64,000 nucleotides of DNA from Candidatus Omnitrophota bacterium (GTDB taxonomy: Bacteria; Omnitrophota; Gorgyraeia; Gygaellales; Profunditerraquicolaceae): assembly GCA_041650835.1 (NCBI GenBank), contig JBAZKL010000002.1, positions 602,435 through 666,434 on the forward strand, read 5' to 3'. The position numbers and the translations under genes were made by a program. The notes under the pieces are model-generated. The model did not search any database. It was given only the letters and a program-made list of their open reading frames with translations, and was not told the origin of the DNA. Position 1 is the stretch's first letter; each line of letters begins with the position of its first letter. Positions 2,605-44,719 of this stretch are shown here, in pieces.

Positions 2605-2616
2605 CGTTTGCGCCCT

Positions 2617-8698: not shown

Positions 8699-9382
8699 TC
8701 ATTGGGCAACTCTTAATTTTAACAGGATCCACAATGCCAGGACACCGTCTTTCCAACTTGTTTTCTTGCCGTCTTCAATAGTCCGGGGATAATACGAGAT
8801 CGGGACTTCTACTATCCTTTTACCTTGCAGCAAAAGTTTAGCGGTAACTTCCGGACAAAATTCAAAGCCCTTGCAGGAAAGCGCCAAAGATTTCAGGACT
8901 TCAGATTTAAAGGCTTTATACCCTGTCGATTCATCGGTAAGGCAGCTGCCGTATAAAAGGTTAGTCCACCAGCTTAATAACCTGCCTCCCCAGTAAAAAG
9001 CCGCGTAAGAGCGTTTATTTGTTTTTTTGAGTATCCGGGAACCATAAACCACATCTGCTTCTCCCGAAAAAAGCGGCTTCAAAAGCGCCGGATAATCCTG
9101 AGGGTCATACTCGCAATCAGCGTCCTGTATCAGAATAAACTCTCCCTTGGCGCTCTTCATGCCTCTCCTGATCGCTAATCCCTTTCCGAGATTTTTGTGC
9201 TGGTTCAGGTAAATTACCGGAAAGCCGCATACTTGGGCCTCTGAGGCGGTCAGATCAGTCGAGCCGTCATCAACGACGATCACTTCGAAATCAAAATCAA
9301 GCTTCAAAGCAAAAATATCACATAAGACCTTTCCAAGCGTATGCTCCTCATTATACGCGGGGATTATAATACTGAGCTTCAT
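8699..9382 (-). CDS. GT2 glycosyltransferase (polyprenyl-phosphate sugar transferase-like)
   Basis: MKLSIIIPAYNEE...VVDDGSTD is the GT2 signature with a DxD. Confidence 0.85.
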   Translation of the reverse strand: MKLSIIIPAYNEEHTLGKVLCDIFALKLDFDFEVIVVDDGSTDLTASEAQVCGFPVIYLNQHKNLGKGLAIRRGMKSAKGEFILIQDADCEYDPQDYPALLKPLFSGEADVVYGSRILKKTNKRSYAAFYWGGRLLSWWTNLLYGSCLTDESTGYKAFKSEVLKSLALSCKGFEFCPEVTAKLLLQGKRIVEVPISYYPRTIEDGKKTSWKDGVLALWILLKLRVAQ

Positions 9383-9842: not shown

Positions 9843-11336
9843 TTAACGCACCACCTGATACACATATGCCTTCGGGTTCTCCGGGCTGACAAAGACCCGC
9901 TTAAAGCTGTCCGGATAATCGAACACTAAAGGCAGCAGGTAATCAGAAGCGCTGTCACGGTAAATCTTATTCCGGTCAATAATAAAATAATCGACCTTAT
10001 TGCTCTTGATATATTCGTATTGCGCCCGGGTATCGGTTGAGAGCATGAACTTTATCCCCCGCAGCCCATCGGTATAAATATACAGCCAGTTCGGCCTGCG
10101 GGACATTACAACGCTGTTTGGGGTGCCATGCTCTTTTATCCAGTCAACAGATGAAATAAATGCTTTTTCAGCAGGCGTAAAAAAAGAAGCTTGAAGGCGC
10201 GAACTTTCCAGGATATTCCCGGATAAACCGGCCATCAACAAGAATGCGACCGCCCAAGCAGCCGGTTTTCCCCCGCGCGCTATCCCTTGAACACCACGAA
10301 GCAAATAATACAATAAAAACGGCAGGATCGGCACCAGGTAGCGCGCGCCGTGATGAGTCCAGGAAAGGTACAAAACAAAAAAATATACCAGGACATAAAC
10401 GTCCGTTGGAAGTATCCCTTGTTTTTTTAAATGCCGCCAAAAACCGGCGATCACGCATAAAGCGATCACGCAGCCTATAACGGCTTTGAAGATAAACTCC
10501 GGGGTCACCGGGTCGATCATGGCAAAAAAAGGATACAGGAACAGATCCGGTAATTCTATGCTTACGGTAGCAAGCAAATTATAGATCCAGCGGTCCAAAA
10601 AGCCTGTTATCCCGGAGGTAGATGAAACAAATTCCGCGGTATACGCTGAATGGCCAAATAAGATATTTCGAATGACCCAGGGGGCAAGCAGCATAATAAA
10701 AACTATCCCGAAAAGTAAGCTTCGTTTCACATCCCTCTTAAATCCGAAAAATACTATCGCCGCTATAAAAAGCGAAACCCCGATCATTCTCGTATAATAA
10801 GCGGTTCCCGCGCTCAAAACAAACAACAAAAAGTACTCATTCAGCAAAGATTTACTTTCCCGGTACCGGAATAAAGAATATACAGCCAGCAAGGAAAATA
10901 AGGTATAGGGAATCTCGGATAACACCTGCCGGGCATATAAAACCATTTGGGGCGACAACGCGGCTAAAACTACCACTGCCAAAGACAAGCGTTTCTCAAA
11001 GAAAAAAGGAGCCGTATGCAAAAGCAGCATGACCAGAATGATCGCGAAAAGCACAGTTATTACCTTCAAAATAAAATAATCATGAGGAAAGAAATAAACC
11101 CAGGGCGATAATAACGAAGAATAAAAGAATGGATAGTAATTGCCCTTAACATCCTGAAGCCCGGATGTATACACATAGCCCAACCCCTTTGCCAGGGATT
11201 TGGCAAAAATAATATAGATCGCGCTGTCCTCCTGAAGCGGCAAGAGATTGTTTATCCCAAAGCAATAAAATATAACCGCCGTCAAAAGCAGGGACCCGCA
11301 GATCACTGTTTTATACCGGCTCAGCCAAAACATCAT
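9843..11336 (-). CDS. Polytopic GT-C-fold membrane glycosyltransferase-like protein (ArnT/PMT_2-like)
   Basis: The 497-aa ORF has more than 10 predicted TM helices and a soluble C-terminal domain. The YYTRMIGVSLF region resembles the PMT_2 family. Confidence 0.55.
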   Translation of the reverse strand: MMFWLSRYKTVICGSLLLTAVIFYCFGINNLLPLQEDSAIYIIFAKSLAKGLGYVYTSGLQDVKGNYYPFFYSSLLSPWVYFFPHDYFILKVITVLFAIILVMLLLHTAPFFFEKRLSLAVVVLAALSPQMVLYARQVLSEIPYTLFSLLAVYSLFRYRESKSLLNEYFLLFVLSAGTAYYTRMIGVSLFIAAIVFFGFKRDVKRSLLFGIVFIMLLAPWVIRNILFGHSAYTAEFVSSTSGITGFLDRWIYNLLATVSIELPDLFLYPFFAMIDPVTPEFIFKAVIGCVIALCVIAGFWRHLKKQGILPTDVYVLVYFFVLYLSWTHHGARYLVPILPFLLYYLLRGVQGIARGGKPAAWAVAFLLMAGLSGNILESSRLQASFFTPAEKAFISSVDWIKEHGTPNSVVMSRRPNWLYIYTDGLRGIKFMLSTDTRAQYEYIKSNKVDYFIIDRNKIYRDSASDYLLPLVFDYPDSFKRVFVSPENPKAYVYQVVR

Positions 11337-29612: not shown

Positions 29613-29619
29613 TTTTAGT

Positions 29620-30705
29620 TTAATTATTTAAACATTCATCGACATAAAGCATCGAATTATCCGCCAAGTTTACCTGCTTGGGTTCTTTTAATTCTTTCCC
29701 ATAGGCGTCAACGATGATATTGATCGTCGGCCGAAGCGGCAGTTCAGGATTCTCCCTGATCACTAAACCGATCTCTTTAGTGTTAAGCCTGACCAGAGTC
29801 CCCATAGGAAATACCCCGATGCGCTCGATCAAAAGCTTAATGACTTTATGGTCAAAACATGACTTATTCTTTAAAATCGTCTTTATCGTTTCCAAAGGGC
29901 TGAATTTCGCGCGGTACGGCCGTTTATGGATCATCGCTTCATAAACATCGACTAATCCGACAATGCGCGCATATTCACCGATCTGCTCATCCTTAAGGCC
30001 GGCAGGATACCCTGAGCCGTCCATACGTTCATGTTCCTGGCGCACAACATCGAAGACCCGTTGGCTGAACGGGCCTCCTGACTGCTGCAGTATCTCAATT
30101 CCCGATAACGGGTGTTCTTTAACACGTTTGCTTTCTTCCTGAGATAAACAATCCGGCTTATTGATGACAGCCAAACATTTCACCATACCCAGGTCATGCA
30201 GCAAAGAGGCAACGCCCAATTCAATTACCCCGGGTTGATCAAAACGCAGCGCTATCCCCAGCTCAAGGGAAATAACGCACACATTGACCGTATGATAATA
30301 AAAATAATCCTGAACTTGAGGATAATCGATCAAAGCGCAGCGCAATAGATTCTTGCTGCCCCCTTGCAGTAAACCAACCGCTTTCTCGACCAACGGGGTG
30401 AGGCCGGCAAGAAATCCTTCTTCATATTTTAAATCGGGATTATACAATACGCGGGCTGCCGCTACAAGCTGGTCATACAACTCCACGGCCTTGGCGCCGT
30501 TAATAGAATTCAATTCTTTATGGACAGCCGCGGAAATATTGATCTTATGCGAATGAGAAGCTTGATTTTGACAGGAAGGTTCTTCACGGCCTTGCGGATG
30601 AGGGCCTCGAGCGCCTCCAAGGGGGTCCTGGCCTAACCCTAATTCAGCATCAAGGTCCTTCTTGGGCTCTTTAAGTTTTTTAAAGATATCTGATATTCTA
30701 AGCAT
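29620..30705 (-). CDS. HD-GYP domain phosphohydrolase (probable c-di-GMP phosphodiesterase)
   Basis: HDLGM and HERMDGSGYP match the HD and GYP motifs. Confidence 0.8.
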   Translation of the reverse strand: MLRISDIFKKLKEPKKDLDAELGLGQDPLGGARGPHPQGREEPSCQNQASHSHKINISAAVHKELNSINGAKAVELYDQLVAAARVLYNPDLKYEEGFLAGLTPLVEKAVGLLQGGSKNLLRCALIDYPQVQDYFYYHTVNVCVISLELGIALRFDQPGVIELGVASLLHDLGMVKCLAVINKPDCLSQEESKRVKEHPLSGIEILQQSGGPFSQRVFDVVRQEHERMDGSGYPAGLKDEQIGEYARIVGLVDVYEAMIHKRPYRAKFSPLETIKTILKNKSCFDHKVIKLLIERIGVFPMGTLVRLNTKEIGLVIRENPELPLRPTINIIVDAYGKELKEPKQVNLADNSMLYVDECLNN

Positions 30706-31540
30706 TCGTTTTGTCTACCGGGAGTTGATTGCTGAAATTCGAGGCTTCGAGGTCATCATTAATCTTGGTAATTGTTTTCTTCTCGATAACGCCCATTTCA
30801 CTGCCAAAACCAACCAATAATGCCAGATCGCAAATATTATTGATCCGCCGCGGTATGCCCCCGGAACAAAGGAATATTTCTTTATACGCGTCTTCTTCAA
30901 AGATCTGCTTTATTGCTCCCGCGATATTTAAACGGTGCAGGATATATTCTTTGACTTCCTGCTCGCTTAATGCCTTCAAATGGAAACGCACCGCCATGCG
31001 CTGGCTCAACTGAGGTAAATTCGATACCGCGTAATTGAGCTCCGGCTGGCCTAACAAAATAAGCGTCAAAAGAAAAGCGTTATCAAGTTGAAAATTCAAT
31101 AAAAGCCGCAATTCCTCGAATATCTCTTTGCTCTCGATAGCCTGGGCTTCATCGATCATGATCACGCTATGCTTGCCCATACTATGGTTTGAATACAGGA
31201 TCTTATGCAGGCAATGAAAAAGGTCGATCTTGGTCGCCAACTCTTCTCCCCCCAGCTGATGGATGATCTCACGGATGAATTCCAGACCGGACAGCCTCGG
31301 GTTAAGGATAAAAACCGACTGGTATAAATGCTCCTGTTGTAATTCCTGCCAGAGTATACGGTTCAAAAGGGTCTTCCCGCTGCCGTATTCTCCGGTAATT
31401 AAACCCGCCCCCTTACGTTCGCGCACCACATACAGCATACGCGCCAAAGCCTCTTTATGCTGCTGGGAATAATACACGAACCGCGGGTCAGGAGTATTCT
31501 CAAAGGGTTTCTCTTTTAACCCCCAATATGCTTCATACAT
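30698..31540 (-). CDS. ExeA/GspA/MshM-like AAA+ ATPase
   Basis: Walker A is GEYGSGKT and Walker B is VIMIDEAQ. The size and layout match the ExeA family. Confidence 0.75.
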   Translation of the reverse strand: MYEAYWGLKEKPFENTPDPRFVYYSQQHKEALARMLYVVRERKGAGLITGEYGSGKTLLNRILWQELQQEHLYQSVFILNPRLSGLEFIREIIHQLGGEELATKIDLFHCLHKILYSNHSMGKHSVIMIDEAQAIESKEIFEELRLLLNFQLDNAFLLTLILLGQPELNYAVSNLPQLSQRMAVRFHLKALSEQEVKEYILHRLNIAGAIKQIFEEDAYKEIFLCSGGIPRRINNICDLALLVGFGSEMGVIEKKTITKINDDLEASNFSNQLPVDKTNA

Positions 31541-31543
31541 AGT

Positions 31544-32128: not shown

Positions 32129-32150
32129 TTCTTCCTCCTTTAATGAAAGA

Positions 32151-33137: not shown

Positions 33138-33138
33138 G

Positions 33139-34932
33139 TTAAAAATTCTTGACCGGTTTTAATACCGGCAAACGATCCATATCCTGTTTTACCGGTTGAT
33201 AATTCTGGTACGCCTTCAACTCTACCGGTGTATTTTCCTCGGAAAAATCCTGGTATTTCTGGTACTCTTTATCCAAGGTATGGCCAAAATCACGGTCATA
33301 ACCGGTAACAAGTTCATCGCCTTCCACGACATGAGGGGTCAATAAGATCACCAATTCCGCCCGCACCTTCTTATTGGTTTTCGTCTTAAAAGCCTCACCG
33401 ATGAACGGGATCTTGCTTAAAAACGGCGTGCCGCTGGAATCAAGGGTCTTTTCTTCTTTACTTAAACCGCCGATCAAGATACTGGAACCGTCCTTGACCA
33501 TAACGATCGTTTCCGCGGTCGATGTGTCGATTATCGGGATCTTATTCTTACTGGAAGTTTCCAGGAATGAGATAACGCTTGAGATCTCCGGTTTTATTTT
33601 AACGGTAACGAAACCATCATCATTGATCGTAGGAGTGACCATCATTTGTATACCGACATCAACATAGGTGACTGCTTCCGATACGGTCGTGCTTGTCTGC
33701 GTTTGAGTAGTTGTCGTCGTTATATAGGCCTGCCGCTCGCCGACATGGATCTTGGCTTCCTGATTGTTGACCACGGCCAGCTTCGGGTTGGAAAGTATGC
33801 GCGTTTCTCCTAAAGTCTGCAAATAATGGATAATGACGTCAAAATCATTCTTGCCGACAACGCCCAAATGGATCTCTTCGGTCGAGGTTTTCGGAGTCGA
33901 GGAGGAAAAATCAGTTGTCGTCCCGGAAAAGGGGTACGCACCGACATATCCGGTATCCTCAACGACCTCCTTGCGGGAACGCCAGGTATTGCTCGTTGCC
34001 GTCGTAGACGGGCCGACTGAACTCAAAGGAGTCGATCCAAGATACGTAGTCCCCCATCTCTTTCCGAGGTTAAACAAGCCCTCCCATTCAACGCCGGAAC
34101 CGACGGAATCGGTCAGTTTGACCTGGATGATCTTTGCGTCAATAAGTATCTGCTTGGTCTTTTTATCCAGGCTCTGTATTAAACGGCTGATATCCTCCAT
34201 GCGCTCAGGCAGGGTTTGCACGATAACCTGGTTTGTCCGCTCATCAGCTTTAATAGAGCCTAATTTCTTTACATCGATTTGAGGCTTTAATTGCTCTTCA
34301 ATGTCCTTGGCGCGGGCGTATTTCAGGTCAAAGACCATAATAACATTCTTTTTCTCCATCGCCTGCAAGGTGGCCTCCATGCTCTTGACACGCTCCGCGG
34401 TATCCATAACCAGGATAACCCCGGAATCCTGGTCCAGGAGTATCTTACCTATCTCGCTCTTAAGCGTGTTCAAAAGATTATACGCCTGTTCGGGGATCGC
34501 GTATTTTAGATTAAAGACGCGGGTGACCCTGGTATCAATAAAATTCTTGCCGTAGCGGGCCTTATATTCATTCTCGGTCATTACATTATAAATATCGCCT
34601 TTTTTCTCATACGCCAGGTTATTACTGCGCAAGATAATGTCAAAAACATCCTTGGCAGGCACATTATCGACCATAAGCGATGTCCGGCCGGAAACTTCTT
34701 TTGTAGGGATGATATTCAAACTCGCTTTTGTGGCGATATATTTCAATGCTTCGATTATTTCCATGTCCCGCAGGTCTAAAGAGATCGTTACCTTGGGAAA
34801 ATCATCGTTTATGGCAGCTGCTTCCTTTTGAAAAGGGAGCTTATCCGCGCGCTGTAACCCCTGCGCGTAAGAATTCATTATCCCGCAAAAAACGGGAATA
34901 ATCAATAAAGAATACACCTTAAATAATTTCAT
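33139..34932 (-). CDS. Secretin (GspD/PilQ/MshL family)
   Basis: Secretin_N repeats are followed by the C-terminal secretin domain ...TAETIVMVKDGSSILIGGL...PFLSKIPFIGEAF...LVILLTPHVV. Confidence 0.85.
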   Translation of the reverse strand: MKLFKVYSLLIIPVFCGIMNSYAQGLQRADKLPFQKEAAAINDDFPKVTISLDLRDMEIIEALKYIATKASLNIIPTKEVSGRTSLMVDNVPAKDVFDIILRSNNLAYEKKGDIYNVMTENEYKARYGKNFIDTRVTRVFNLKYAIPEQAYNLLNTLKSEIGKILLDQDSGVILVMDTAERVKSMEATLQAMEKKNVIMVFDLKYARAKDIEEQLKPQIDVKKLGSIKADERTNQVIVQTLPERMEDISRLIQSLDKKTKQILIDAKIIQVKLTDSVGSGVEWEGLFNLGKRWGTTYLGSTPLSSVGPSTTATSNTWRSRKEVVEDTGYVGAYPFSGTTTDFSSSTPKTSTEEIHLGVVGKNDFDVIIHYLQTLGETRILSNPKLAVVNNQEAKIHVGERQAYITTTTTQTQTSTTVSEAVTYVDVGIQMMVTPTINDDGFVTVKIKPEISSVISFLETSSKNKIPIIDTSTAETIVMVKDGSSILIGGLSKEEKTLDSSGTPFLSKIPFIGEAFKTKTNKKVRAELVILLTPHVVEGDELVTGYDRDFGHTLDKEYQKYQDFSEENTPVELKAYQNYQPVKQDMDRLPVLKPVKNF

Positions 34933-34935
34933 ATC

Positions 34936-35163
34936 TTATATGCCTAAGAGGCGCTTACGGATCAACATAAGCGAATAGCCTTCTTTGGAAAGTGCAATGA
35001 TCTGTTTAACGCGTTTATGAGCCAGGAGGCGTTCGTAATAACGCACATTACCTTTCTTAAAGGCCAGGCTCAACAGCCCCGCATCGCAATAACGGTTTAT
35101 CGTCTGTGAAGATATACCGTATAACTGTGATAACTCTTTTACCGTGATAAATTTATCTGGCAT
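34936..35163 (-). CDS. Small MerR/excisionase-type HTH DNA-binding protein. It is a paralog of the 41632-41871 protein.
   Basis: The 75-aa protein reads ITVKELSQLYGISSQTINRYCDAGLL...KKGNVRYY...EGYSL, close to the other small HTH protein. Confidence 0.65.
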   Translation of the reverse strand: MPDKFITVKELSQLYGISSQTINRYCDAGLLSLAFKKGNVRYYERLLAHKRVKQIIALSKEGYSLMLIRKRLLGI

Positions 35164-38100
35164 TTTTTAGTTCCTGATCCGCGGTCTCCCACGTAAGCAC
35201 GAACCTTCTGACCTGTTCGGCTTCGGGGTCATTGGGCGCTAACGCTAAATATTTCCTGAAATGGACGATCGCCTTCTTACGGTCATTTAATTGCTCGCTG
35301 AAGATAACGCCTAAATTATAATGGCTCTCAGCGTCATCCGGTTTTAATTCCAAGACTTTCTGGAATTCCTTGACCGCCTTATCATATTCCTGCTTCTGGG
35401 CATACATGACCCCCAGGTTATACCGTAACACGGTATTTTCCTGAGGCAATTCAGCGTACCGGTTGGTCAGTGTCTCATGCCTGTCCTTGGCCTCTTCGGT
35501 GATCTTGAAACGCTGCGTTAACTGGTCATAATTATTTTTCAAATTCTGATAATCCTCCATTAATTCCTTATATTGCTTTTCCACCTCTTCTTTATTCTTG
35601 ACCCGCTGTTCATAATCCTGGAGCTTGCGGTTATATTCTTTTGTTTTCTCAAGTAATTCGTTTTTCGAAGCCTCCAAGTCAGCCACTTTCTTAGTCATTG
35701 CGGGAGGCGGCATTCCGCCCATCTTTTCTTTATCTTTTTCTAACCGGGTGAACTGATTTTGTAAATCATTGACCTGTTCGGAAACAGCCACGTATTGATT
35801 TTTCAAGAAAGTATTTTGCTCAAGCAGCTTCTTATTTTCATCCGTTAAAAGATTCTTTTGAGCTTCCAATTCTTTAAGCTGGGAGAGATTCTGTTTTTGC
35901 TGGTTCAAGAGAGTGCTTTTTTCCTGCACGAGCTGATAAGAGAGGTCCTGAGAACTGCGCAGATCAGACTGGACTTTATTAAGCGAATCGGTAAGTGAAC
36001 GCGTATCCGCTTCTTGGAGGGATTTATATTCCCTGAACTTGTCATTAAGCTGCGCCCACTCGCCCTCTTTATGCGCTTTCACCTGCGCGATCTCGGCATC
36101 AAGGAGCGCCCTATCCTGCTCCTTATTGGTTTTTAACTTTGTGATCTGATCAAAAAGCCCGTCCCGCCCCCGTTTAAGCTCATCACATTCCTGCCGAAGC
36201 TGGGCCTTCTCTTTTTCATTCTGGGATATTTGCGCCAGCAATTGCTCGGTCTTTTGCTGGTAACTTTGGGCTTGGGCCGCTGAACCTGTTTTGAGATTTT
36301 CCGCGTCCGCAAGCCTGACCATGGCGCGCGCTAACTGTTCGGAGATCCTGGTGCGCTCCTCAAGGATAGTCAGGTTTTTCTGCATACAATCCTGATACTG
36401 CTCTTCTAAAACCGCGTTCGCGCTCTCTAACGCTTTGGTCTTAGCGCTCAACACATTCTCCTGGCTCTGATAAACCGCTTTTTCCTGGATCAATTGCCCG
36501 GAAAGCTCCTGCGCGACCTTCAGGTCCTTTTGCAGCTTACTTATCTGTTGCGCAAAAGTATTATCGCTCTGGGCTTCAGAGAGAGAAGCTTCTTTTTCCC
36601 TGCTTTCTTTGAGCTGCGCCGATAGGACAGTAATGCTGTTTTTAAGCTCATCGGCCTGTTTCTGGGCGGTTAAACGCTCCTTTTCCAACTGTTCGGATCT
36701 ATTGCGCAGCTGCGCTAATTCCTGCGATGAAATATTTTTCTGTTTACTCGTAAGGGCTTCCTGCCGCGAGAGATTGCGCTCCGCTTCAAGATGAACCAGC
36801 TTCTGGCGTAACTGCGCGATATCCCGGTCAGACCCCAGTTGCTTCTTTAACTCCTCAGCCTGCGCCGCTATCTGGTCCCGTTCAGATTCAACCTTAGCTA
36901 ACTTTGCGCGTAACTGATCCAGATCCTTGGGCGAAGACAGCTGTTTCTTTAACGCCGCCCCTTCATCCCGCAGATGGTCGCGCTCTTCCTCCAATTTCAT
37001 CACCTTGTTACGCAACACGGAAACTTCTTTTTCCGAACCCAGCTGTTTCTTTAAAACTTCAACCTGCTTCTGTAAAACATTACGGTCTTCTTCTATTGCC
37101 GCGAATTTAGAGCGCACCCGCGCGATATCATCCTCAGAGCCTATCTGCGATCTCACCGTTTTAACTTCAGACTGCAAAGAATTACGTTCTTCTTCTAATT
37201 GAGCGAATTTCTCCCGCAATTTTTCAATTTCTTTTTGAGAGACCAGTTGTTTTTTAAGGCCTGCTGCTTCCTGCTGAAGCCGGTTACGCTCTTCCTCAAG
37301 CTTTGAGGCCTTATCACGCAGAGCGTCAAAATCACGTTTCGCGATGATCTCTTTTTTCAGGCGCGCGGCATCTTCTTTTAACGTATCGCGTTCTTCTTCG
37401 ACGAGCGACAATCTTTCGCGAAGTTCTTTTGCTTCCTGAGAAGCAACCGACAGCTCCTTAAAACGGATATCTTTTTCTTTCAAATCATCCGTCAACTGCC
37501 GGCGCTCTTCCTGGAGTTCCGATACCCGCAGGCGTATCTGGTCAATATCTTTTTGCGCGACGATCTTCCTTTTCAGCGAATTTGACTCTTCCTGCAGCTG
37601 GACGCGCTCGGTCACCGCGTCTGCCAATTTATCACGCAGCGCCTCGAGTTCTTTCTGCGGCACCTGTTTTTTCTTAAGGGCGTTTAATTTAACATTAAGC
37701 TCATTGCGCTCTAATTCGACGCCGGTGAGCTTATCGCGCAGCTGTTCAATCTCTTTCCTTAACGACTGGACCTCCCCTCCTAAGACAACCCTGACTGTTT
37801 CAAGGTCACTGAGCTGCCCGGAAACATCCTTTTGTTTACTTTGAATAAATTCTTTCTCTTGGGTCAAGCGGTTGATCAATTCCTGAAAGCTCTTAAAATC
37901 ATCCTGAAGCTTGAATATCTTCTCATTCAAAGACCTGTTTTCCTGTTCCTTCAACCCGCAGAGCTCCTTAAGCTGTAAAAGCGCCTGCTGAGAGAGCAAA
38001 AGCTCATCCTTTGCTTTTTTAAGCAAATTAATAAGCTTGTCTTTGCTCAAGGCTGAATCAACGCTATCAAGATCGGCCGTGATCGCCTTGAGATCGTCTT

Positions 38101-38230
38101 TTGCCTGTGCCCGATCAAACGGTCCAGGAAAAAACGCCATAGCTGCGGATAATAGAATACTCATGCTCAAAAGCACTCCCCGTGAACCAGGTTTTCTCTT
38201 CATAGAGTCTCCGCTTAAAATTGAAATCAC
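35153..38230 (-). CDS. Giant secreted coiled-coil protein with about ten 33-aa tandem repeats and C-terminal TPR
   Basis: The 1025-aa ORF has a signal peptide and repeats of the pattern LRxKxxxLEEERNxLxxExxxLKKQLxSxKE. The C-terminal TPR is paralogous to the 32151-33137 protein. Confidence 0.65.
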   Translation of the reverse strand: MISILSGDSMKRKPGSRGVLLSMSILLSAAMAFFPGPFDRAQAKDDLKAITADLDSVDSALSKDKLINLLKKAKDELLLSQQALLQLKELCGLKEQENRSLNEKIFKLQDDFKSFQELINRLTQEKEFIQSKQKDVSGQLSDLETVRVVLGGEVQSLRKEIEQLRDKLTGVELERNELNVKLNALKKKQVPQKELEALRDKLADAVTERVQLQEESNSLKRKIVAQKDIDQIRLRVSELQEERRQLTDDLKEKDIRFKELSVASQEAKELRERLSLVEEERDTLKEDAARLKKEIIAKRDFDALRDKASKLEEERNRLQQEAAGLKKQLVSQKEIEKLREKFAQLEEERNSLQSEVKTVRSQIGSEDDIARVRSKFAAIEEDRNVLQKQVEVLKKQLGSEKEVSVLRNKVMKLEEERDHLRDEGAALKKQLSSPKDLDQLRAKLAKVESERDQIAAQAEELKKQLGSDRDIAQLRQKLVHLEAERNLSRQEALTSKQKNISSQELAQLRNRSEQLEKERLTAQKQADELKNSITVLSAQLKESREKEASLSEAQSDNTFAQQISKLQKDLKVAQELSGQLIQEKAVYQSQENVLSAKTKALESANAVLEEQYQDCMQKNLTILEERTRISEQLARAMVRLADAENLKTGSAAQAQSYQQKTEQLLAQISQNEKEKAQLRQECDELKRGRDGLFDQITKLKTNKEQDRALLDAEIAQVKAHKEGEWAQLNDKFREYKSLQEADTRSLTDSLNKVQSDLRSSQDLSYQLVQEKSTLLNQQKQNLSQLKELEAQKNLLTDENKKLLEQNTFLKNQYVAVSEQVNDLQNQFTRLEKDKEKMGGMPPPAMTKKVADLEASKNELLEKTKEYNRKLQDYEQRVKNKEEVEKQYKELMEDYQNLKNNYDQLTQRFKITEEAKDRHETLTNRYAELPQENTVLRYNLGVMYAQKQEYDKAVKEFQKVLELKPDDAESHYNLGVIFSEQLNDRKKAIVHFRKYLALAPNDPEAEQVRRFVLTWETADQELKNAR
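36730..37740 (-). repeat. Intragenic tandem repeat with a period of about 99 bp (about 10 diverged units) that encodes the 33-aa coiled-coil repeats
   Basis: The unit recurs about every 99-102 bp, with the cagctgtttctttaa/ccagttgttttttaa motif at about 36838, 36941, 37040, 37242 and 37343. Confidence 0.6.
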
Positions 38231-40044
38231 CGTGAAAGCGATTTAGGCCCTTTCATTTCCAATCTTTGTTTCTCAACCGGCATAAAAACCGGAGCCGCCG
38301 GTTCAACAAGTTCTTCTTTCTTCAATGCGCGGTAATCTTTCGGCGGCTTGACTGCGCCACCGCCGACTTCCTTCAAAACAGGGCCGGCTACCAAAACTTC
38401 TCCGGAGATCATTTTTGGCGTCAGAATGATCAATAACTCCGTCTTTTCTTTTGACTTCGATTTTACACTGAAGAAGCGGCCAAGTAAAGGAATATCTCCC
38501 AATACCGGAGTCTGCTGCGCGGTAGAACTTTCCGTTTCTTTACGCAGCCCCCCGATAATAACGGTTGAACCGTCTTTAACCATAACGGTGGTTTCCGCAA
38601 GCGACGTATCGATGATAGGGATCTGATTTTTAGTCGGAGTAATCAGCATCTCCAGGACGCTGTTGATCTCAGCTTTTATTTTCAGGGTGATGAAGCCTTC
38701 ATCGTTTATGATCGGAACGACGGAAATGATAACGCCGACGTCGACAAAGGTCACCTGTTCGGAAACAGTATTGGTAGTCTGTCCGGTTGTCGTCGTTGTC
38801 GTCACATAGGCTTCTTTCTGTCCGACATGGATCTTCGCTTCCTGATTATTAATTATGGCGAGTTTTGGATTGGAAATAACCTTGGTCTTTCCTTTTGTCT
38901 GCAAATACTTAATGACCGTATCAAAATCATGCTTACCGACAACCCCCAGGTGCATTTCTTCGGTCCCGATCTTCGAACTGCTGGAAGAATAATTGGTTGT
39001 CGTACCGCTAAAAGGATATGAACCTACGTTTCCCACGGTATCCCATACCGAACTGCGTGAACGCCAGGTATCGGTTGACGCCTGCACCGACGCAAACGGC
39101 GTAGACCCCAGGTAACTCATGCCGAATTGCCGGCCTAAATCAAATAATCCTTCCCACTGTATTCCTTCGCTGGTATCATCCGATAATTTCACATTGACGA
39201 TATTGATATCAACAATGATCTCCTTTGTCTTCTGGTCAAGGGCTTTGATCAGCTTTTCGATCTGATCCATACGCTTCGGAAGAGTCTGCACGATTAATTG
39301 ATTACCCCGCTCATCCGCCTTGATCAAGCCGACCTTCTTGGAATCAAGCTGATTCTTCAAGGCTTCTTCCACATCCTTAGCCTTGGCGTAATTCAATTTG
39401 AAGACTTTAACGGTATTTTTTTCCTCAAAATCCTTCAACACCTTATCCATAATTTCGATGCGAGCGGCGGAATCGATCACTAATACATTACCGGATTCCG
39501 GATCGACTAATACCCTGCCGATCTCGCTTTTAAGCATATCCAGCAAGCTGAAAGCCTGTTCCGGAACGATGTAATTCAAATAAAAGACCTTTACCTGGCG
39601 GATATCGGCAAAATTCTTCCCGTAAAGCACCCGGTATTCTTCCTGAGTCATGACATTATAGATCTCCCCCTGCTTATCGTACGCGAGATTATTACTGCGA
39701 AGCATAAGATCGAAGACATCCTGGATAGGGGCATTCTCGACCATAAGCGTTACCCTGCCTATGACGGCCTTTGTCGTAACAATATTCATTCCGGCCTTCA
39801 TAGACAAAAACTTTAACGCATCAACAACATCGATATTTCTTAAATCAAGGGAGATCTTCCCCGCGAGGACAGTTACCGGAGGAGCGACCATGGGTTGCAG
39901 GAGCGTCGCTTGAGCTAATTGTATTAATTTATTATCGGCTGAGCCCGCAGGCTCAGCATGAAGGCCGGGAGTAACGCAAAGGCTTACGCAGGCAAAGGAA
40001 GGGATGAAAACAAGGTATTTTAAGAACTTTTTCTTTAATATCAT
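38227..40044 (-). CDS. Secretin (second paralog)
   Basis: LAETTVMVKDGSTVIIGGL...PVLGDIPLLGRFF...LLIILTPKMI is the secretin signature, preceded by N-terminal Secretin_N-type domains. Confidence 0.85.
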   Translation of the reverse strand: MILKKKFLKYLVFIPSFACVSLCVTPGLHAEPAGSADNKLIQLAQATLLQPMVAPPVTVLAGKISLDLRNIDVVDALKFLSMKAGMNIVTTKAVIGRVTLMVENAPIQDVFDLMLRSNNLAYDKQGEIYNVMTQEEYRVLYGKNFADIRQVKVFYLNYIVPEQAFSLLDMLKSEIGRVLVDPESGNVLVIDSAARIEIMDKVLKDFEEKNTVKVFKLNYAKAKDVEEALKNQLDSKKVGLIKADERGNQLIVQTLPKRMDQIEKLIKALDQKTKEIIVDINIVNVKLSDDTSEGIQWEGLFDLGRQFGMSYLGSTPFASVQASTDTWRSRSSVWDTVGNVGSYPFSGTTTNYSSSSSKIGTEEMHLGVVGKHDFDTVIKYLQTKGKTKVISNPKLAIINNQEAKIHVGQKEAYVTTTTTTGQTTNTVSEQVTFVDVGVIISVVPIINDEGFITLKIKAEINSVLEMLITPTKNQIPIIDTSLAETTVMVKDGSTVIIGGLRKETESSTAQQTPVLGDIPLLGRFFSVKSKSKEKTELLIILTPKMISGEVLVAGPVLKEVGGGAVKPPKDYRALKKEELVEPAAPVFMPVEKQRLEMKGPKSLSR

Positions 40045-40637
40045 CGTAATTCGATCAATTCTTCTCCATAGCGCAAAATTATCTTATCTTTAAATACACT
40101 TTCTACTTTAAGATCTCCGATCATCTGCCCTTTTTTGACGAAAGAAGTGCGCGCGGACTTAACGTCTTCTATCATGATATCGGGATTATCCGACCAGGAG
40201 ATCCCGACGAGCCTTAAATTTTGCATTACTTCAGCCGCTTTAGAAGAAATGACCTCATTGACCGATGAAGATGAATTAAGCCCCATTTTGAATATATCCC
40301 TGCTTTGTGTTTTTCCTATATAATAGGCGAGATCTTTTAACCGGGGCGTCTCTTTTCTGACTTGTGCGTCTTTCACTAACTCAGGAGCCGCCCATTTTCC
40401 CGGGTTGATCTTCTTTATACCCTGGGAAAGGCTATACACAAAATAAACGGACAAGAGAATAACACATAATAAAAGAACAAGATTGATTACTTTAATATCG
40501 ACTTCATTCTGCTTTTTCTTGAAGAGCTTCAGTATATTTTCTTTGAGAGCAGAAAAAGCCGAACCCAATTGCTCCGGTGAAAAAACGCCTAAAATATTCG
40601 TTTTTACCGCCATAATGCCTTGCCGCAAGCCGCTCAA
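40041..40637 (-). CDS. GspC/PilP-like secretin-interacting protein
   Basis: A single TM helix is followed by a C-terminal beta-sandwich-like segment LRLVGISWS...FVKKGQMIGDLKVESVFKDKIILRYGEELIEL, which resembles the GspC HR and PilP C-domains. Confidence 0.5.
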   Translation of the reverse strand: MSGLRQGIMAVKTNILGVFSPEQLGSAFSALKENILKLFKKKQNEVDIKVINLVLLLCVILLSVYFVYSLSQGIKKINPGKWAAPELVKDAQVRKETPRLKDLAYYIGKTQSRDIFKMGLNSSSSVNEVISSKAAEVMQNLRLVGISWSDNPDIMIEDVKSARTSFVKKGQMIGDLKVESVFKDKIILRYGEELIELR

Positions 40638-41623
40638 TTGGCCTTTCCAGGCGGAGATCCGGCCTCAAGAAATTGAGGATATACCAGGATCTTTGCTTCA
40701 ACCTTTAATTTCTCCAGCCAAACATTCAACTCATCGTATTTCTTTATCATCTCTACCTGCTTAAAATACGAATCCCGCAGTTTCGGGAAATCCTCTTTAA
40801 GCGCAAGCCTCTTTTTCAAGATACGGATCACACCATACCCCTTATATACGGGGATAGGAGGATAGACGGTATTGACCTCTCGCTCGAGCATTTTATATAA
40901 ATCATCCTTGGGGATCTTCCACATATTAATAAGGAACTCAAGGGAAACGAACCCCGGATGCTTGGCGAATTTCGGGTCTTTCTTGGCTTCGGCATCCCAA
41001 AGAGCAGGATCGGCCATTTTAGCATAAAAAGCATCCGCGTCTTTTTTCTCGTCAAACTGTACCAGCTCCAGTTCCAGAGTATTGTATTCATTCAAGAACT
41101 CCTGGTAGGCTTCTTCCTCGGTGACTGCCGGCTTAAACGTCTCCAGGACCTGCTGGCGCAATTTTTCTAATTGTATCAAATGGCGCATTTGATTTTCAAA
41201 AAGCTCGGAATTCCCGCCGGTTTTCTCTTTGAGCCATTTATCGTATTCAGCTTTATCTTTTTGCCAATCGAAGGTTACCTTTTCGCTTTTAAGCGTCTTG
41301 GAGACTTCCTGTTCCACCTCTTCCCTGCTGACAGTGATATTACGGCGGAACGCTTCGTAAGAAAGAAGCAACTGCTCCCATGTCCTATCCTCAAACTCCA
41401 CTTCAGTCTGAGGAGGCTGCCCCCAGCGCGTCCCAAAAACACCGATCACTCTTTTAATAAAATAATAATTACCCGCGGTGACCTTAACGCCGTAACCGCT
41501 CAATTCCCCGGCAAATTCCTCCGGCTTCCCCTGGATTTGCTGGCAAAGGGCTTGCCTGCAATCATACATAGGCCCGGCGCACGCAAAGATTAAAATAAAA
41601 ATTATGTCGAGATACTTCCTCAT
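40634..41623 (-). CDS. Periplasmic or lipoprotein-like protein of unknown function
   Basis: It has a signal peptide with a possible lipobox cysteine and a helical soluble domain (SurA-N-like at best). Confidence 0.45.
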   Translation of the reverse strand: MRKYLDIIFILIFACAGPMYDCRQALCQQIQGKPEEFAGELSGYGVKVTAGNYYFIKRVIGVFGTRWGQPPQTEVEFEDRTWEQLLLSYEAFRRNITVSREEVEQEVSKTLKSEKVTFDWQKDKAEYDKWLKEKTGGNSELFENQMRHLIQLEKLRQQVLETFKPAVTEEEAYQEFLNEYNTLELELVQFDEKKDADAFYAKMADPALWDAEAKKDPKFAKHPGFVSLEFLINMWKIPKDDLYKMLEREVNTVYPPIPVYKGYGVIRILKKRLALKEDFPKLRDSYFKQVEMIKKYDELNVWLEKLKVEAKILVYPQFLEAGSPPGKAN

Positions 41624-41631
41624 AAAACCTT

Positions 41632-41871
41632 TTAAACTCCTATTAGCCTTTTTTTGATCAGGCGCAGCGAATAACCTTCACGCGACAGCCGGGTGATCAA
41701 AGCAATGCGCTGCTTCACCAACTTAGAATCATAAAAGCGTATATTCCCCTTTTTAAAAGCAAGCGGCAGCAAGCCAAAATCGGTATAATGATTTACCGTC
41801 TGGTAAGTCAAATGATACCTGTTCATGATCTCTTTCGCCGAAACTAATGTATTTTCGTCTGCCATACTCAC
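41632..41871 (-). CDS. Small MerR/excisionase-type HTH DNA-binding protein
   Basis: The 79-aa protein reads SAKEIMNRYHLTYQTVNHYTDFGLLPLAFKKGNIRFY...EGYSLRLIKKRLIGV. Confidence 0.65.
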   Translation of the reverse strand: MSMADENTLVSAKEIMNRYHLTYQTVNHYTDFGLLPLAFKKGNIRFYDSKLVKQRIALITRLSREGYSLRLIKKRLIGV

Positions 41872-41905
41872 CTATTCACGCGCATTTCACTTGTGATAAC
41901 CTTTG

Positions 41906-41949
41906 TATATATAAGACTTATTGTACCTACCATAAGTCTTATATATACT
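41906..41949. promoter_or_regulatory. 16-bp perfect inverted-repeat candidate operator
   Basis: The two arms, gtatatataagactta and taagtcttatatatac, are separated by a 12-nt spacer and overlap the predicted -10 element. Confidence 0.6.
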
Positions 41950-41970
41950 ACAGATTCCGGGCTTGTCAAT
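41940..41970 (-). promoter_or_regulatory. Sigma70-like promoter for the HTH-secretin operon
   Basis: On the minus strand the -35 is TTGACA (41964-41969), the spacer is 16-17 nt, and the -10 is TATATA/TATAAT-like (about 41942-41947). It lies about 70 nt upstream of the ATG. Confidence 0.55.
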
Positions 41971-42111
41971 AGTTTTTTTAATATTTTTTAGGGAGGCAGA
42001 TGTGAGCGGCTGCGGCACGCCATTGCCGGTCACCCATGACCGCAGCCCGGGTTTAAACCCGGGCTACGTGACATAAACGAGCATCATTGCAAAACGATCT
42101 TTTTAACAAGC

Positions 42112-42143
42112 AAAAAACCGGGCTTATACGCAATAAGGCCCGG
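42112..42143 (-). terminator. Rho-independent terminator after the response-regulator gene
   Basis: On the minus strand the stem CCGGGCCUUAU/AUAAGCCCGG is followed by UUUUUU. Confidence 0.5.
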
Positions 42144-42261
42144 CCTTAAGCTGTGACCTTTTAAGTTACAGATAAGTCCGGGCCTTGAATATCCTGCCCG
42201 TCTTTCCAGTCCGCGCAAAGCAGACGGCAAAGAACCTTGCTTTAGGCGCCGATAACTGAGA

Positions 42262-42651
42262 TCACTTCTTCAGCTTCTTATGCGTGCGTAAAGCAGCCTC
42301 AAGAAGGGATAGCCCCTCCTGAAAATCAGTACCCTTGTAAAACACGCCTGAAACACCGTAACCCATTGCTTCATTGACGCGCTTATCATCGACAAAAGCG
42401 CTGATAAAGATCACCGGCACATTCGCGTTGAATTTTCTGATCCTTTTTAACGATTCTACGCCGTCCATAACCGGCATATTCAGGTCCAGGAAAATAATAT
42501 CGGGTGACTGTTCCTTCACCATGACCAAAGCGTTCTCCCCGTTAGAAGCAGAAATAACGCTATAGCCTTTTGATTGCAGCCAAAACGTCATCACCTGGCG
42601 GAAATCAGATTCATCATCAACCACTAAAACTTTAATATCATTATTTTCCAT
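42262..42651 (-). CDS. Stand-alone response-regulator receiver domain protein (CheY-like)
   Basis: KVLVVDDESDFRQ...DIIFLDLNMPVMDG carries the phospho-acceptor Asp. Confidence 0.85.
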   Translation of the reverse strand: MENNDIKVLVVDDESDFRQVMTFWLQSKGYSVISASNGENALVMVKEQSPDIIFLDLNMPVMDGVESLKRIRKFNANVPVIFISAFVDDKRVNEAMGYGVSGVFYKGTDFQEGLSLLEAALRTHKKLKK

Positions 42652-44719
42652 CCGTAACCTCCATCATAGGCATTCCCGAGAAAGGAAGCGTAAAAGTAAA
42701 GACCGTCCCCTCCCCCCGCTTGCTCTCAACCCGGATTTTTCCGCCATGCAACTCTACGATCTCTTTGGCTACCGCTAAACCAATACCGGTGCCTCCCACA
42801 TCAGCCGTGGACTTCTCCCCTATCTGATAGAATTTATCAAAAACCTTTTTGAGGTTTTGCTCTTCGATCCCGATCCCGTTATCTTTAACCAGGACATAGC
42901 ACTCTTGTTTTTCCGGCGAGGCTTTGGCTTCTACGGTGATCAAACCGTTTTGAGGCGTAAATTTGATTGAATTACCGATAAGATTATTTAAGACCTGGAT
43001 GATCCTGTTAGCGTCTATATTGATTTCAGGAAGGCCCTCCTGAACGGACTTACGTATTTCTATCGCTTTGGTCTTTGCCCAGATATTCAGGCTCTCGGTT
43101 GAATCGCCGATCACCTTATCGATCCGGCACAAAGAACGCTTGATCCGCATCTGGCCCGCCTCAAGCTTGGAAAGATCCAGCAGGTCATTGATCAAAAGGC
43201 TCAAACGCTTGAGGTTGCGTTCCGCGATGGAAAGGAATTGCTCCTGAGGCTCCGATATCTCTCCCGCGGTTTTCTCCAATATCAATGAAATTGACTTCTG
43301 AATAGCTACCAGCGGCGTGCGCAATTCATGCGAGACATTGGCGACAAAATTCGACTTTATCTGGTCAAGCTCTTTCTGCTTAGTGACATCATTGAGTATC
43401 GTCACCATACCGACGGTCTTGCCAAAGCTGTCCTCGACAACCGCGGAACTTGTGCGCAGGATCTTTTTTGTCGTTTCATTGCTGCCGACTAATTCGATAT
43501 CCTTCTGCATGACTTCATCTTTGGCGGTAGGGATATCTTTTACCACGGTCAAGAGATGGTCATCTTTAACCAGGTCTTTGATCGGAGTCCCTGAATATTG
43601 ATGATTAACTCCCAGCATTGTTTCCGCCTGGGGGTTCATTAACAGTATTTTACCCTGCGGATCAACGACCACTAAACCATCAGCCATATGGTGGATAATA
43701 TTATCAATACGGTCCTTCTCGCTCTGAACGACTTTACTGTGTTTTTTCACCTGCTCCAACTCAAGGTTGAAGCGGTCCCGCTCCTCCTGGATCCGGCGAA
43801 GCTTTACCCTTAACTCCTCATTTTCCTTCTTAAGGCTCTCTGATTCTCCCGTACCCGTAGCCGAACCCGTACCCGGCCCCCCGCCCGAACCTTCACCCGC
43901 GCCCCCTCCCCCGCCCGCAGCCGGACCGCGCCCCTTCTTCACCGGGCGGGCGATCTCATCCTGGATCTTATTCACCAGCGCTTCAACTTCCTTCGACGGA
44001 CAGCCGTAGCCGATCAACGCTTCTTTTAAAACCTGCAGCGTATCAGTTTTATCTCTTGAAGCCACAGAGATGAATTTTTTAAACAGGCTTTTCGTTGCCG
44101 GGCTTATTTTATTCTTTTCTTTAAACTCAGCGCTCATCATAGTAAAAAGCTCTTTTTCTATCCCGCCGACATCCTGCGATTTAACTGCCTTGCCTGACGA
44201 TAATTCTTTTATTTTATCTTTTAAAGCGTTCCAAGCGTTTAATTCGGCGCCCAAGAGCGCTTCTTTATCTTTATTGATCTTAATATAGGAATACTGGTCT
44301 GCTTTAATATGCTGAATATTCTTGTCGGCGAATATTTTATTGATATCCCCCAGGCCCTTTAACTGCGCGGCGTCCAAAAGCAATAACTGCAGAAAATCTT
44401 CGACCTCCTGTTCAGTGATTCCTCTCTGAAAAGTCATATTCTCTATGTCGATTTTTTTAAGATACGGAAGGATATCCTTGGCAAGCCCGGGATTTTTATC
44501 GTTCAAAGGCTCCCCATCAATAAGCACCTTATTGTCCTGTGACAAGCTTAAGCTTAACGCTTCTTTACCGGAGAATATCTCGGATATCACCGCATAGACA
44601 TTTGTAATCGATTCCACCACTATAGGATGTTTCGCGGGATAAATAGAGATCTTTCGGATAGCGGTTACAAGGTTTGAAATGAATTGAGAGGGTTTATTTT
44701 GAGGGGATTGATTCTCCAT
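42641..44719 (-). CDS. Sensor histidine kinase with an N-terminal soluble domain, a Gly-rich linker, PAS, HisKA and HATPase_c
   Basis: The H-box is HELRTPL and the G-box is GGTGIGLAVAKEIVELHGGKI. PAS follows a GGGGGAGEGSGGGPGTGSATGTG linker. Confidence 0.85.
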   Translation of the reverse strand: MENQSPQNKPSQFISNLVTAIRKISIYPAKHPIVVESITNVYAVISEIFSGKEALSLSLSQDNKVLIDGEPLNDKNPGLAKDILPYLKKIDIENMTFQRGITEQEVEDFLQLLLLDAAQLKGLGDINKIFADKNIQHIKADQYSYIKINKDKEALLGAELNAWNALKDKIKELSSGKAVKSQDVGGIEKELFTMMSAEFKEKNKISPATKSLFKKFISVASRDKTDTLQVLKEALIGYGCPSKEVEALVNKIQDEIARPVKKGRGPAAGGGGGAGEGSGGGPGTGSATGTGESESLKKENEELRVKLRRIQEERDRFNLELEQVKKHSKVVQSEKDRIDNIIHHMADGLVVVDPQGKILLMNPQAETMLGVNHQYSGTPIKDLVKDDHLLTVVKDIPTAKDEVMQKDIELVGSNETTKKILRTSSAVVEDSFGKTVGMVTILNDVTKQKELDQIKSNFVANVSHELRTPLVAIQKSISLILEKTAGEISEPQEQFLSIAERNLKRLSLLINDLLDLSKLEAGQMRIKRSLCRIDKVIGDSTESLNIWAKTKAIEIRKSVQEGLPEINIDANRIIQVLNNLIGNSIKFTPQNGLITVEAKASPEKQECYVLVKDNGIGIEEQNLKKVFDKFYQIGEKSTADVGGTGIGLAVAKEIVELHGGKIRVESKRGEGTVFTFTLPFSGMPMMEVTDGK

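Follow-up and report, generated by a model that had tools for sequence, protein, structure and literature searches.

In a 64,000-nucleotide (nt) stretch of the genome of a Candidatus Omnitrophota bacterium, referred to here as the window, the region 41905-41969 is proposed to be the promoter of a secretin-assembly operon with a conserved operator built into it. This operator lies over the predicted transcription start and is thought, with moderate confidence, to mediate autorepression of an operon of ExeA-like, GspC-like and secretin genes by the product of the first gene, a protein of 77 amino acids (aa) that consists of a MerR-type winged helix only. In outline, phylogenetic footprinting lends good support to the combination of promoter and putative autoregulatory operator: one promoter-operator layout is found 5' of the orthologous gene for a MerR-only protein of about 80 aa in about 47 Omnitrophota loci. 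Coordinates of promoter and operator are window positions, and both elements are read on the minus strand.

By direct reading, the promoter consists of the -35 hexamer TTGACA (41964..41969, minus strand), which matches the consensus in 6/6 positions, a spacer of 16 nt (41963..41948), and the -10 hexamer TATATA (41942..41947, minus strand), which matches in 4/6 positions, with the A at position 2 present and the T at position 6 (the -7 T) missing. A TGn extension of the -10 hexamer is absent. An initial annotation of this DNA had named TTGACA, a spacer of 16-17 nt and TATATA on the minus strand as a near-consensus sigma70 promoter. These elements are present (41969-41964, 16 nt, 41947-41942), and the label is appropriate for the -35 hexamer and the spacing but too generous for the -10 hexamer. 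A consensus promoter scan, which requires T at position 6 of the -10 hexamer, did not call the window promoter because TATATA has an A there.

The promoter is overlapped by a long inverted repeat. An exhaustive search found perfect arms of 17 nt at 41905-41921 and 41932-41948 with 10 nt between them, which are part of a near-perfect palindrome of 44 base pairs (bp) at 41905..41948 (21-nt arms, one mismatch, 2-nt centre). The perfect palindrome of 16 bp described in the initial annotation was slightly understated, as the 15-mer TATATATAAGACTTA and its reverse complement are present and a G/C flank extends the match to 16, compared to perfect arms of 17 nt. The palindrome is far above chance expectation: it is the longest inverted repeat of the window, in which the runner-up has arms of 13 nt, and the longest perfect arm in 40 dinucleotide-preserving shuffles measured 9-11 nt in 38 cases, 13 nt in one and 15 nt in one. 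The repeat starts one base ahead of the -10 hexamer, which falls inside the left arm as had been stated before, and the centre of the full palindrome lies 15 nt 3' of the end of this hexamer. Given that a start site usually lies about 7 nt past its -10 hexamer, the transcription start is predicted in a zone 4-12 nt past the -10 hexamer (41930..41938, minus strand), within which A is conserved at alignment columns 12 and 16. A function of the palindrome as a terminator was considered and rejected, as no T-run follows either arm on either strand and a terminator scan was silent at this place.

For the comparison with relatives, about 50 loci were fetched and the 200 nt 5' of each small MerR gene were compared, anchored on the -35 hexamer. 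The promoter and matrix comparison comprised 47 sites from about 47 distinct Omnitrophota metagenome-assembled genomes (MAGs) or contigs, and the column statistics comprised 38 distinct loci; two further contigs (P0010 and P0004) were available as gene tables only, and their DNA is not part of the comparison. The -35 hexamer is an exact TTGACA in 43/47 sites and TTGACT or TTGACC in the other 4, with the same distance to the -10 hexamer and the operator. Spacers of 16-17 nt are found in 40/47 loci, 28 of them with 16 nt and 12 with 17 nt. TATATA is also the modal -10 hexamer of the relatives (24/47), 37/47 of which carry a TG at -15/-14 that is not found in the window.

Downstream of the -10 hexamer, the loci share a 22-bp element with the family consensus A-S-TTAYGGTA-NN-TACMRTAA-S-T. 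In the window, this operator core is ACTTATGGTA-GG-TACAATAAGT (41916..41937, minus strand), which matches the family consensus, has 0 mismatches to TTAYGGTANNTACMRTAA and is predicted to span about -3 to +19 relative to the start site. It begins 4 nt past the -10 hexamer, and in 21 loci the core starts 12 nt after the start of this hexamer. In nearly every locus (about 6-12 kb each), the best match to the core is located 40-170 nt 5' of the gene for the small helix-turn-helix (HTH) protein and comprises 13-16 of 16 bases, compared to at most 12 for the best background match. A matrix built from the 47 sites was run over the 64-kb window and about 290 kb of DNA from related loci, and all matches of at least 15.9 bits fell 5' of the small MerR gene. 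The window core reaches 29.5 bits and is the sole match of at least 15.9 bits in the window. Three other core matches (2141, 6158 and 55814), each with 3 mismatches, lie in coding sequence and fall below the matrix threshold, and were dismissed as chance. The association of promoter-operator and HTH gene is retained across different operon heads, with pilMNOPQ in locus L001 and AAA22-first or SurA-first arrangements elsewhere.

Seven alignment columns are invariant in the 38 loci (T15, G19, T20, A21, T29, A30, T33), and five further columns are conserved in at least 90%. Most of the invariant columns lie inside or at the edge of the 12-nt stretch that the initial annotation had regarded as a spacer between the half-sites TATATATAAGACTTA and TAAGTCTTATATATA. 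The half-sites were thus misplaced, and the phylum-wide bases TTAYGGTA-NN-TACMRTAA are mostly found in the supposed spacer. For this reason, a genome search with the half-site proposed earlier would miss the regulon; in the 64-kb window, the half-site TATATAAGACTTA has no second copy at up to 1 mismatch, and the number of copies with 3 mismatches corresponds to chance. The underlying idea of a sigma70-type promoter overlapped by a symmetric operator was nevertheless supported by the common layout of the loci and the exclusive matrix matches, apart from the location of the half-sites. The outer 11 nt of each arm of the 44-bp palindrome are lineage-specific, and the outer columns are complementary in 28-53% of loci, as predicted from base composition. 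Symmetry of the TATATA-rich outer arms is confined to the window and its close relatives L010 (17/21) and L011 (perfect 24-nt arms).

In L011 (2915-2975), whose protein is 94% identical to that of the window, a perfect palindrome with two 24-nt arms and a 2-nt centre occupies the corresponding position. Two symmetric double substitutions and one repair of the mismatch distinguish it from the window palindrome, and L010 has four uncompensated mismatches. These arm changes could be the result of concerted change, for example by template switching.

The conserved bases are embedded in a periodic arrangement. In the promoter-proximal regions, pairs of TAnnnTA heptads occur 49, 35, 26 and 18 times at distances of 9, 18, 27 and 36 nt, respectively, compared to about 1 in shuffled sequences. 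A typical array in the 9-nt register reads TATGGTA.ta / tat..ga.nt / TAYGGTA.nn / TACCRTA.ag / t.tGGTA, and the array of the window reads tgtagta.ta / tataaga.ct / TATGGTA.gg / TACAATA.ag / tcttata.ta. Best cores at other than the modal position are shifted by multiples of 9 (3, 21, 48 and 66 nt from the -10 hexamer), and 11/23 of them are in exact register (p = 1e-5). In L018 and L019, five or more units form a series of 18-bp inverted pairs that begins with a pair centred on the -10 hexamer. This lattice and the extra units in many loci suggest that more than one dimer may be bound.

The proposed operator binder is encoded by the first gene of the operon (41632..41865, minus strand). A start at ATG 41865 (77 aa, MADENTLV...) is more likely than a start at GTG 41871 (79 aa), judging from the homologues P0001 and P0003. 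The protein matches the Pfam family MerR_1 (PF13411) with an E-value of 2.9e-7 and 30.9 bits at a cut-off of 21.6. A total of 343 homologues of about 80 aa were found, all of which contain MerR_1 only, and those with a named source are mostly from Omnitrophota or Omnitrophica. The only NCBIfam match is a weak one to HspR (E 0.003), and sequence searches against solved structures returned only marginal MerR matches (E 0.011 or worse); the fold was therefore established by modelling. The AlphaFold2 model, with a mean confidence score (pLDDT) of 91, comprises beta1-alpha1-alpha2-wing-alpha3-alpha4 with alpha4 at H67-75 and no alpha5. Its best Foldseek matches are MtaN, NmlR, BmrR, SoxR, GlnR, BldC and RacA, with template modelling (TM) scores of about 0.75 for MtaN, BmrR and SoxR. 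All 40 aligned homologues share the C-terminal end right after alpha4, and the 77-aa protein has neither the long alpha5 coiled-coil dimerisation helix nor a C-terminal effector region. The initial annotation had described the product as a dimeric, 79-aa HTH protein of the MerR/Xis type at the head of the secretin operon. The MerR_1 domain and the position at the operon head were confirmed, the length is more likely 77 aa, and a dimer is not a given for a MerR winged helix that has no coiled-coil dimerisation helix. Judging from the model and the alignment, any dimer or multimer of this protein would have to form on the DNA.

Occurrences of the operator beyond the compared loci were sought in metagenomes with a 22-mer pattern with N at positions 2 and 21, which yielded 103 stretches, 80 of which were fetched. 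A small-MerR homologue was located 42-78 nt from the motif in 12/80 of these stretches, which is far above chance. As the pattern is too permissive, the scan measures enrichment (12/80) and not specificity; the remaining matches are mostly 9-nt tandem repeats or coding sequence from unrelated organisms, and many matches were AATT...AATT palindromes, likewise from unrelated organisms. One match (L135:1220-1500) combines a TTGACA promoter with AGTTATGGTAATTACCATAACT directly 5' of a secretin gene (1490..2734), which is preceded by an AAA_22 gene and a gene for a 216-aa protein with no small MerR gene between them. L135 is thus a possible trans target of the small MerR regulator, and action in trans appears plausible because motif and promoter precede a secretin gene that has no adjacent HTH gene.

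The scan also retrieved periodic sites of other kinds. L112 (1940-2210; GC 0.64) contains a TTGACA promoter and three 9-bp direct repeats (AATTACGGT AATTACCGT AATTACCGT) at a small gene whose product starts with MAKAIVTREVVFDAADVL and presumably resembles KfrA-type DNA-binding proteins. This looks like another regulator with an operator of 9-bp repeats in an unrelated organism. Long 9-nt tandem arrays (GTAATTACC / GTAATTGGC / GTAATTGCT) were found on contigs with 56-58% GC in L110 (1560-1680), L111 (560-720) and L118 (10800-10960), and were retrieved only because they contain the search pattern. L066 (5080-5220) and L129 (11830-11980), which are one sequence in opposite orientations with about 39% GC, carry AGTTATGGT AATTACGGT AATTACCGT AATTACCAC in a 9-bp register beside a promoter-like pair TTGTCA/TAGTGT; neither locus yielded a small MerR gene.

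In the window, the small MerR gene is followed on the minus strand by a gene for a SurA/PpiC-like periplasmic protein of 329 aa (40634..41623; weak matches to Pfam Rotamase_2 and SurA_N_3), and a SurA-like gene is found directly 3' of the HTH gene in 10 related loci. The next gene encodes a faintly GspC-like protein of 198 aa (40041..40637, minus strand), which is conserved just before the secretin gene and whose orthologue has a weak match to T2SSC. It is followed by the gene for a first secretin of 605 aa (38227..40044, minus strand; Pfam Secretin E 5e-45, with Secretin_N and STN) and, according to the translated open reading frame (ORF), by the gene for a coiled-coil and TPR protein of 1025 aa (35153..38230, minus strand), with TPR proteins at the equivalent place in relatives. 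A second, paralogous MerR-only gene (34936..35163, minus strand; 75 aa) precedes the gene for a second secretin of 597 aa (33139..34932, minus strand; Pfam Secretin E 2.8e-46). Past secretin 2, genes for a coiled-coil/TPR protein, a 194-aa protein, an AAA_22 ATPase and an HD-GYP-type protein are tightly packed. The ExeA/MshM-like AAA_22 ATPase is encoded at the distal end (30698..31540, minus strand; Pfam AAA_22 E 6e-21; TIGR03015-like with E 1.8e-67, below cut-off), and in 30 related loci an AAA_22 ATPase gene directly follows the HTH gene. In the region 27645-38230, a module of secretin and coiled-coil/TPR protein thus occurs twice and is followed by the ExeA-like ATPase, the HD-GYP protein and a coiled-coil protein of 655 aa, a layout that resembles the MshL/MshN/MshM or ExeA-B/GspD sets for secretin assembly.

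The paralogue is 49% identical to the first HTH protein and matches MerR_1 and also HTH_17 (E 1e-6). It keeps the invariant residues N25, Y27, G31, K38, N41, R43 and Y45 and differs in the recognition helix (Y21S, H26R, T28C, F30A). Its start overlaps the end of the 1025-aa gene, and the upstream sequence is coding. Neither sequence inspection nor the matrix revealed a promoter or operator upstream of 35163, in agreement with the earlier statement that this gene has no intergenic region of its own. The internal position of the paralogue recurs in another MAG (L054 and L034, which are one contig).

On the 5' side, the small MerR gene is preceded in the same orientation by genes for a histidine kinase (42641..44719, minus strand) and a receiver-only response regulator of 129 aa with no output domain (42262..42651, minus strand; Pfam Response_reg only). 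A histidine kinase and a receiver-only response regulator (128-131 aa) are found at this position in about 29/49 loci, including L002, L005 and L010-L013. The conservation of these neighbours suggests a signalling link to the effector-less MerR protein. Between the response regulator gene and the promoter, GC-rich hairpins ending in GGTTTTTTG (42108..42186, minus strand) with a T-run after the inverted repeats are a likely terminator; a terminator scan made no call at these hairpins, and clear terminators are present at the equivalent place in L002 and L005. Because hairpins and T-run appear to end the response regulator gene, the HTH promoter appears to be an independent start. The same gap (42041-42068 and 42133-42186) contains a GC-rich palindrome AGCCCGGGTTTAAACCCGGGCT and two inverted copies of AAGGCCCGG.CTTA, and these repeats may be terminator hairpins or members of a small repeat family. 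Elsewhere in the window, the ORFs 8699..9382 and 9843..11336 are separated by a gap that contains the second-longest perfect inverted repeat (9638-9669; GCCCCGTTAGAAA / TTTCTAACGGGGC, loop of 6 nt), a probable terminator.

According to the proposed mechanism, the operator core would cover the transcription start and the first 19 or so transcribed bases, and two or more copies of the 77-aa protein would assemble head-to-head on it, with weaker units continuing on the 9-bp lattice back over the -10 hexamer. Assembly on the DNA is proposed because the protein has neither a dimerisation helix nor an effector domain. Once bound, the protein would exclude RNA polymerase or keep it from leaving the promoter. 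As the regulator gene comes first in the operon, the whole operon would be kept at a set level by negative autoregulation. The site is centred about 9 nt 3' of the predicted start, at a promoter whose spacer is optimal, and this geometry is compatible with steric repression but not with classical MerR activation. Because the 77-aa protein has no sensor, its input would have to come from a partner. Derepression might thus be brought about by a partner protein, for which the conserved histidine kinase and receiver-only regulator are candidates. In an extension of this model, which is speculative and judged improbable, the MerR-only protein would be the detached output domain of the upstream two-component system, forming a 'split response regulator' for secretin or type IV pilus assembly across Omnitrophota that acts via a BldC-like array. 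The phosphorylated receiver would then bind the DNA-bound winged-helix protein and control a cooperative array that nucleates on the inverted core and spreads in 9-bp steps over the -10 hexamer.

Several observations weigh against autorepression through this operator. Binder, sign of regulation, stoichiometry, start site and input signal are inferred from position and co-occurrence. The promoter lacks the -7 T in its -10 hexamer and was not called by the promoter scan. The left half of the core is better conserved than the right half, an imbalance to which constraints on the start site may contribute. The first lattice unit, TATGGTATA, also resembles a generic extended -10 element (TRTGnTATAAT), so that part of the 9-bp periodicity may belong to the promoter and not to the operator, and in the window this unit is degenerate (TGTAGTATA). 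The protein alone gives no hint of dimerisation, and BldC, the best-studied protein of the winged-helix-only architecture, binds direct repeats. Proteins of the BldC type can activate as well as repress, which bears on the sign of regulation. Finally, 68/80 motif-only stretches are not beside a small-MerR gene, and the 22-mer pattern alone is not diagnostic outside the phylum.

The symmetry of the element raises the question of whether it acts as DNA or as RNA. If transcription started near 41935-41938, the operon mRNA would begin with a stem of 9+2 pairs, and the palindrome might serve as a 5'-terminal stem-loop for stability or translation, with the DNA symmetry as a by-product. The two symmetric double changes and the mismatch repair that distinguish the window from L011 are also what would be expected of a stem, but the relatives as a whole argue for a protein site. 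Across the 21 symmetric column pairs of the 38 loci, 67.8% are complementary compared to 66.6% in column-preserving shuffles, 59/500 of which reach the observed value, and the covariation score of 0.184 is close to the 0.165 of shuffled alignments (39/500). Compensatory base pairs across relatives, as expected of a structured RNA, are therefore not seen in these loci. The variable symmetric columns 13/32, 17/28 and 18/27 are complementary in only 32-51% of loci, the G-A mismatch of the TACAAT variant is left uncorrected in about 10 loci, and the four mismatches in L010 are uncompensated. The fold energy of the predicted 5' untranslated region is unremarkable against shuffled sequence (z = -1.33), and an Rfam search yielded sub-threshold noise only and no matching family. 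Moreover, half-sites recur as separate units of the 9-bp lattice, also 5' of the start. An RNA function is thus considered highly unlikely. Because sequence conservation and symmetry occur without covariation, the conserved element is, as far as the alignment can tell, a DNA site for a symmetric protein assembly. Such a DNA site might also belong to a mobile element, with an excisionase-type HTH factor of the Xis/AlpA kind acting at the palindrome as a recombination or att-type site. The fold is common to Xis proteins and the paralogue matches HTH_17, but the synteny with a chromosomal pair of histidine kinase and response regulator genes and with secretin genes is maintained throughout the phylum, the ORF lists showed neither an integrase nor boundaries of an element, and the register of the site to the promoter is fixed; this explanation is regarded as extremely improbable.

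For a DNA site at this promoter, the identity of the binder and the direction of its effect have to be considered. The operator might be bound by the paralogue or by an unlinked regulator, in which case the first gene of the operon would merely be the first regulated gene. Retention of the invariant residues by the paralogue and the site before the L135 secretin gene, which has no adjacent HTH gene, are in line with this possibility. It appears unlikely, however, as the first-type HTH gene has this site beside it in all operon variants, among them pilMNOPQ in L001, and also at loci with no second HTH gene seen within 3 kb. The recognition helix of the paralogue is changed at four residues, and a regulator gene beside its own site is the commonest arrangement. 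A positive or architectural action of the 77-aa protein itself is given a small but somewhat greater probability. Through bending or untwisting of the DNA, cooperative multimers like those of BldC would stimulate transcription of the operon or control its timing, in keeping with the winged-helix-only architecture shared with BldC, with oligomerisation of BldC on 9-bp repeats and the 9-bp lattice of these loci, and with an imperfect -10 hexamer that has no -7 T and, in the window, also no TGn. On the other hand, a promoter with a perfect -35 hexamer and an optimal spacer should work unaided, the strongest site lies over the start and the early transcribed region, where a bound protein normally blocks polymerase, and the core is an inverted and not a direct repeat. 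Autorepression by the 77-aa protein is therefore preferred.

Omnitrophota is an uncultivated phylum of ultra-small, partly host-dependent bacteria, and no description of a regulator of their secretin or pilus genes was found in the literature searched. The principle of an autoregulated operator over a promoter is textbook knowledge. The small winged-helix regulator and the operator that it is predicted to bind at its own promoter are previously undescribed, and the geometry of the predicted site is unusual. The analysis provides a precise cis-element, A-S-TTAYGGTA-NN-TACMRTAA-S-T, whose register to a canonical promoter is fixed, a candidate regulator with phylum-wide conservation, and the promoter type that Omnitrophota genomes carry here (TTGACA, 16-17 nt, TGnTATATA). 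The protein would be a second candidate for the very short list of winged-helix-only MerR proteins (BldC, TnrA/GlnR), with another site geometry, in which an inverted core is part of a 9-bp lattice. With the motif, MAGs can be searched for members of the regulon, and a 60-bp fragment together with the 80-aa protein would be an easy in-vitro system.

Classical MerR activators such as MerR, SoxR, CueR and BmrR act at promoters with spacers of 19-20 nt and bind between the hexamers. The Omnitrophota protein shares the DNA-binding fold with these regulators and with MtaN, and its pseudo-palindromic operator of about 22 bp is comparable to that of BmrR. In contrast to these proteins, which form dimers via the alpha5 coiled coil, carry an effector domain and activate by DNA distortion, it has neither alpha5 nor an effector domain, the spacer of its promoter is 16 nt long, and the site lies downstream of the -10 hexamer. 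The latter arrangement is reminiscent of lacO1 (at +11) and of HspR/HAIR, where a symmetric site overlaps the -10 hexamer and start region of an otherwise strong promoter and the regulator gene comes first in the operon. Unlike these systems, the binder proposed here is a predicted monomeric domain assembling on DNA, and its site is part of a 9-bp lattice.

TnrA and GlnR bind the site TGTNA-N7-TNACA, a motif other than that of the Omnitrophota loci. They are also short proteins of the MerR fold that have no long coiled coil (TM 0.69-0.78 on the target), and they are controlled by a partner protein instead of a ligand-binding domain, as is proposed for the Omnitrophota protein. Their C-terminal tail binds glutamine synthetase, whereas the Omnitrophota protein ends right after alpha4, and the sequence relation does not go beyond the fold (E 0.08-0.56). 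In Bacillus, TnrA and GlnR (PDB 4R4E, 7TEA) bind their palindromic sites as homodimers (PMC5859096).

BldC from Streptomyces (68 aa; PDB 6AMA, 6AMK) consists of the MerR-like winged helix only and has neither a coiled coil nor an effector domain (PMC5859096). It is monomeric and assembles head-to-tail on varying numbers of 9-bp direct repeats, four of which are held by a 36-mer (PMC5859096). The Omnitrophota protein resembles BldC as a small winged-helix-only MerR protein of the 70-80 aa class, and the lattice of its putative sites, with a number of units that varies by locus, may be comparable to the 9-bp units of BldC. The structural similarity reaches a TM score of 0.75 on the target with 21-23% identity over about 52 covered residues. 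At the sequence level, phmmer gave no match to BldC at E-values up to 10, and the family profile matched 6AMA with an E-value of 0.87. The sites differ in that BldC recognizes direct repeats of AATTxxxxC, whereas the strongest element in the Omnitrophota loci, TTAYGGTA-NN-TACMRTAA, is inverted. In addition, BldC is a pleiotropic developmental regulator, whereas the Omnitrophota protein appears to be dedicated to its own secretin/pilus operon.

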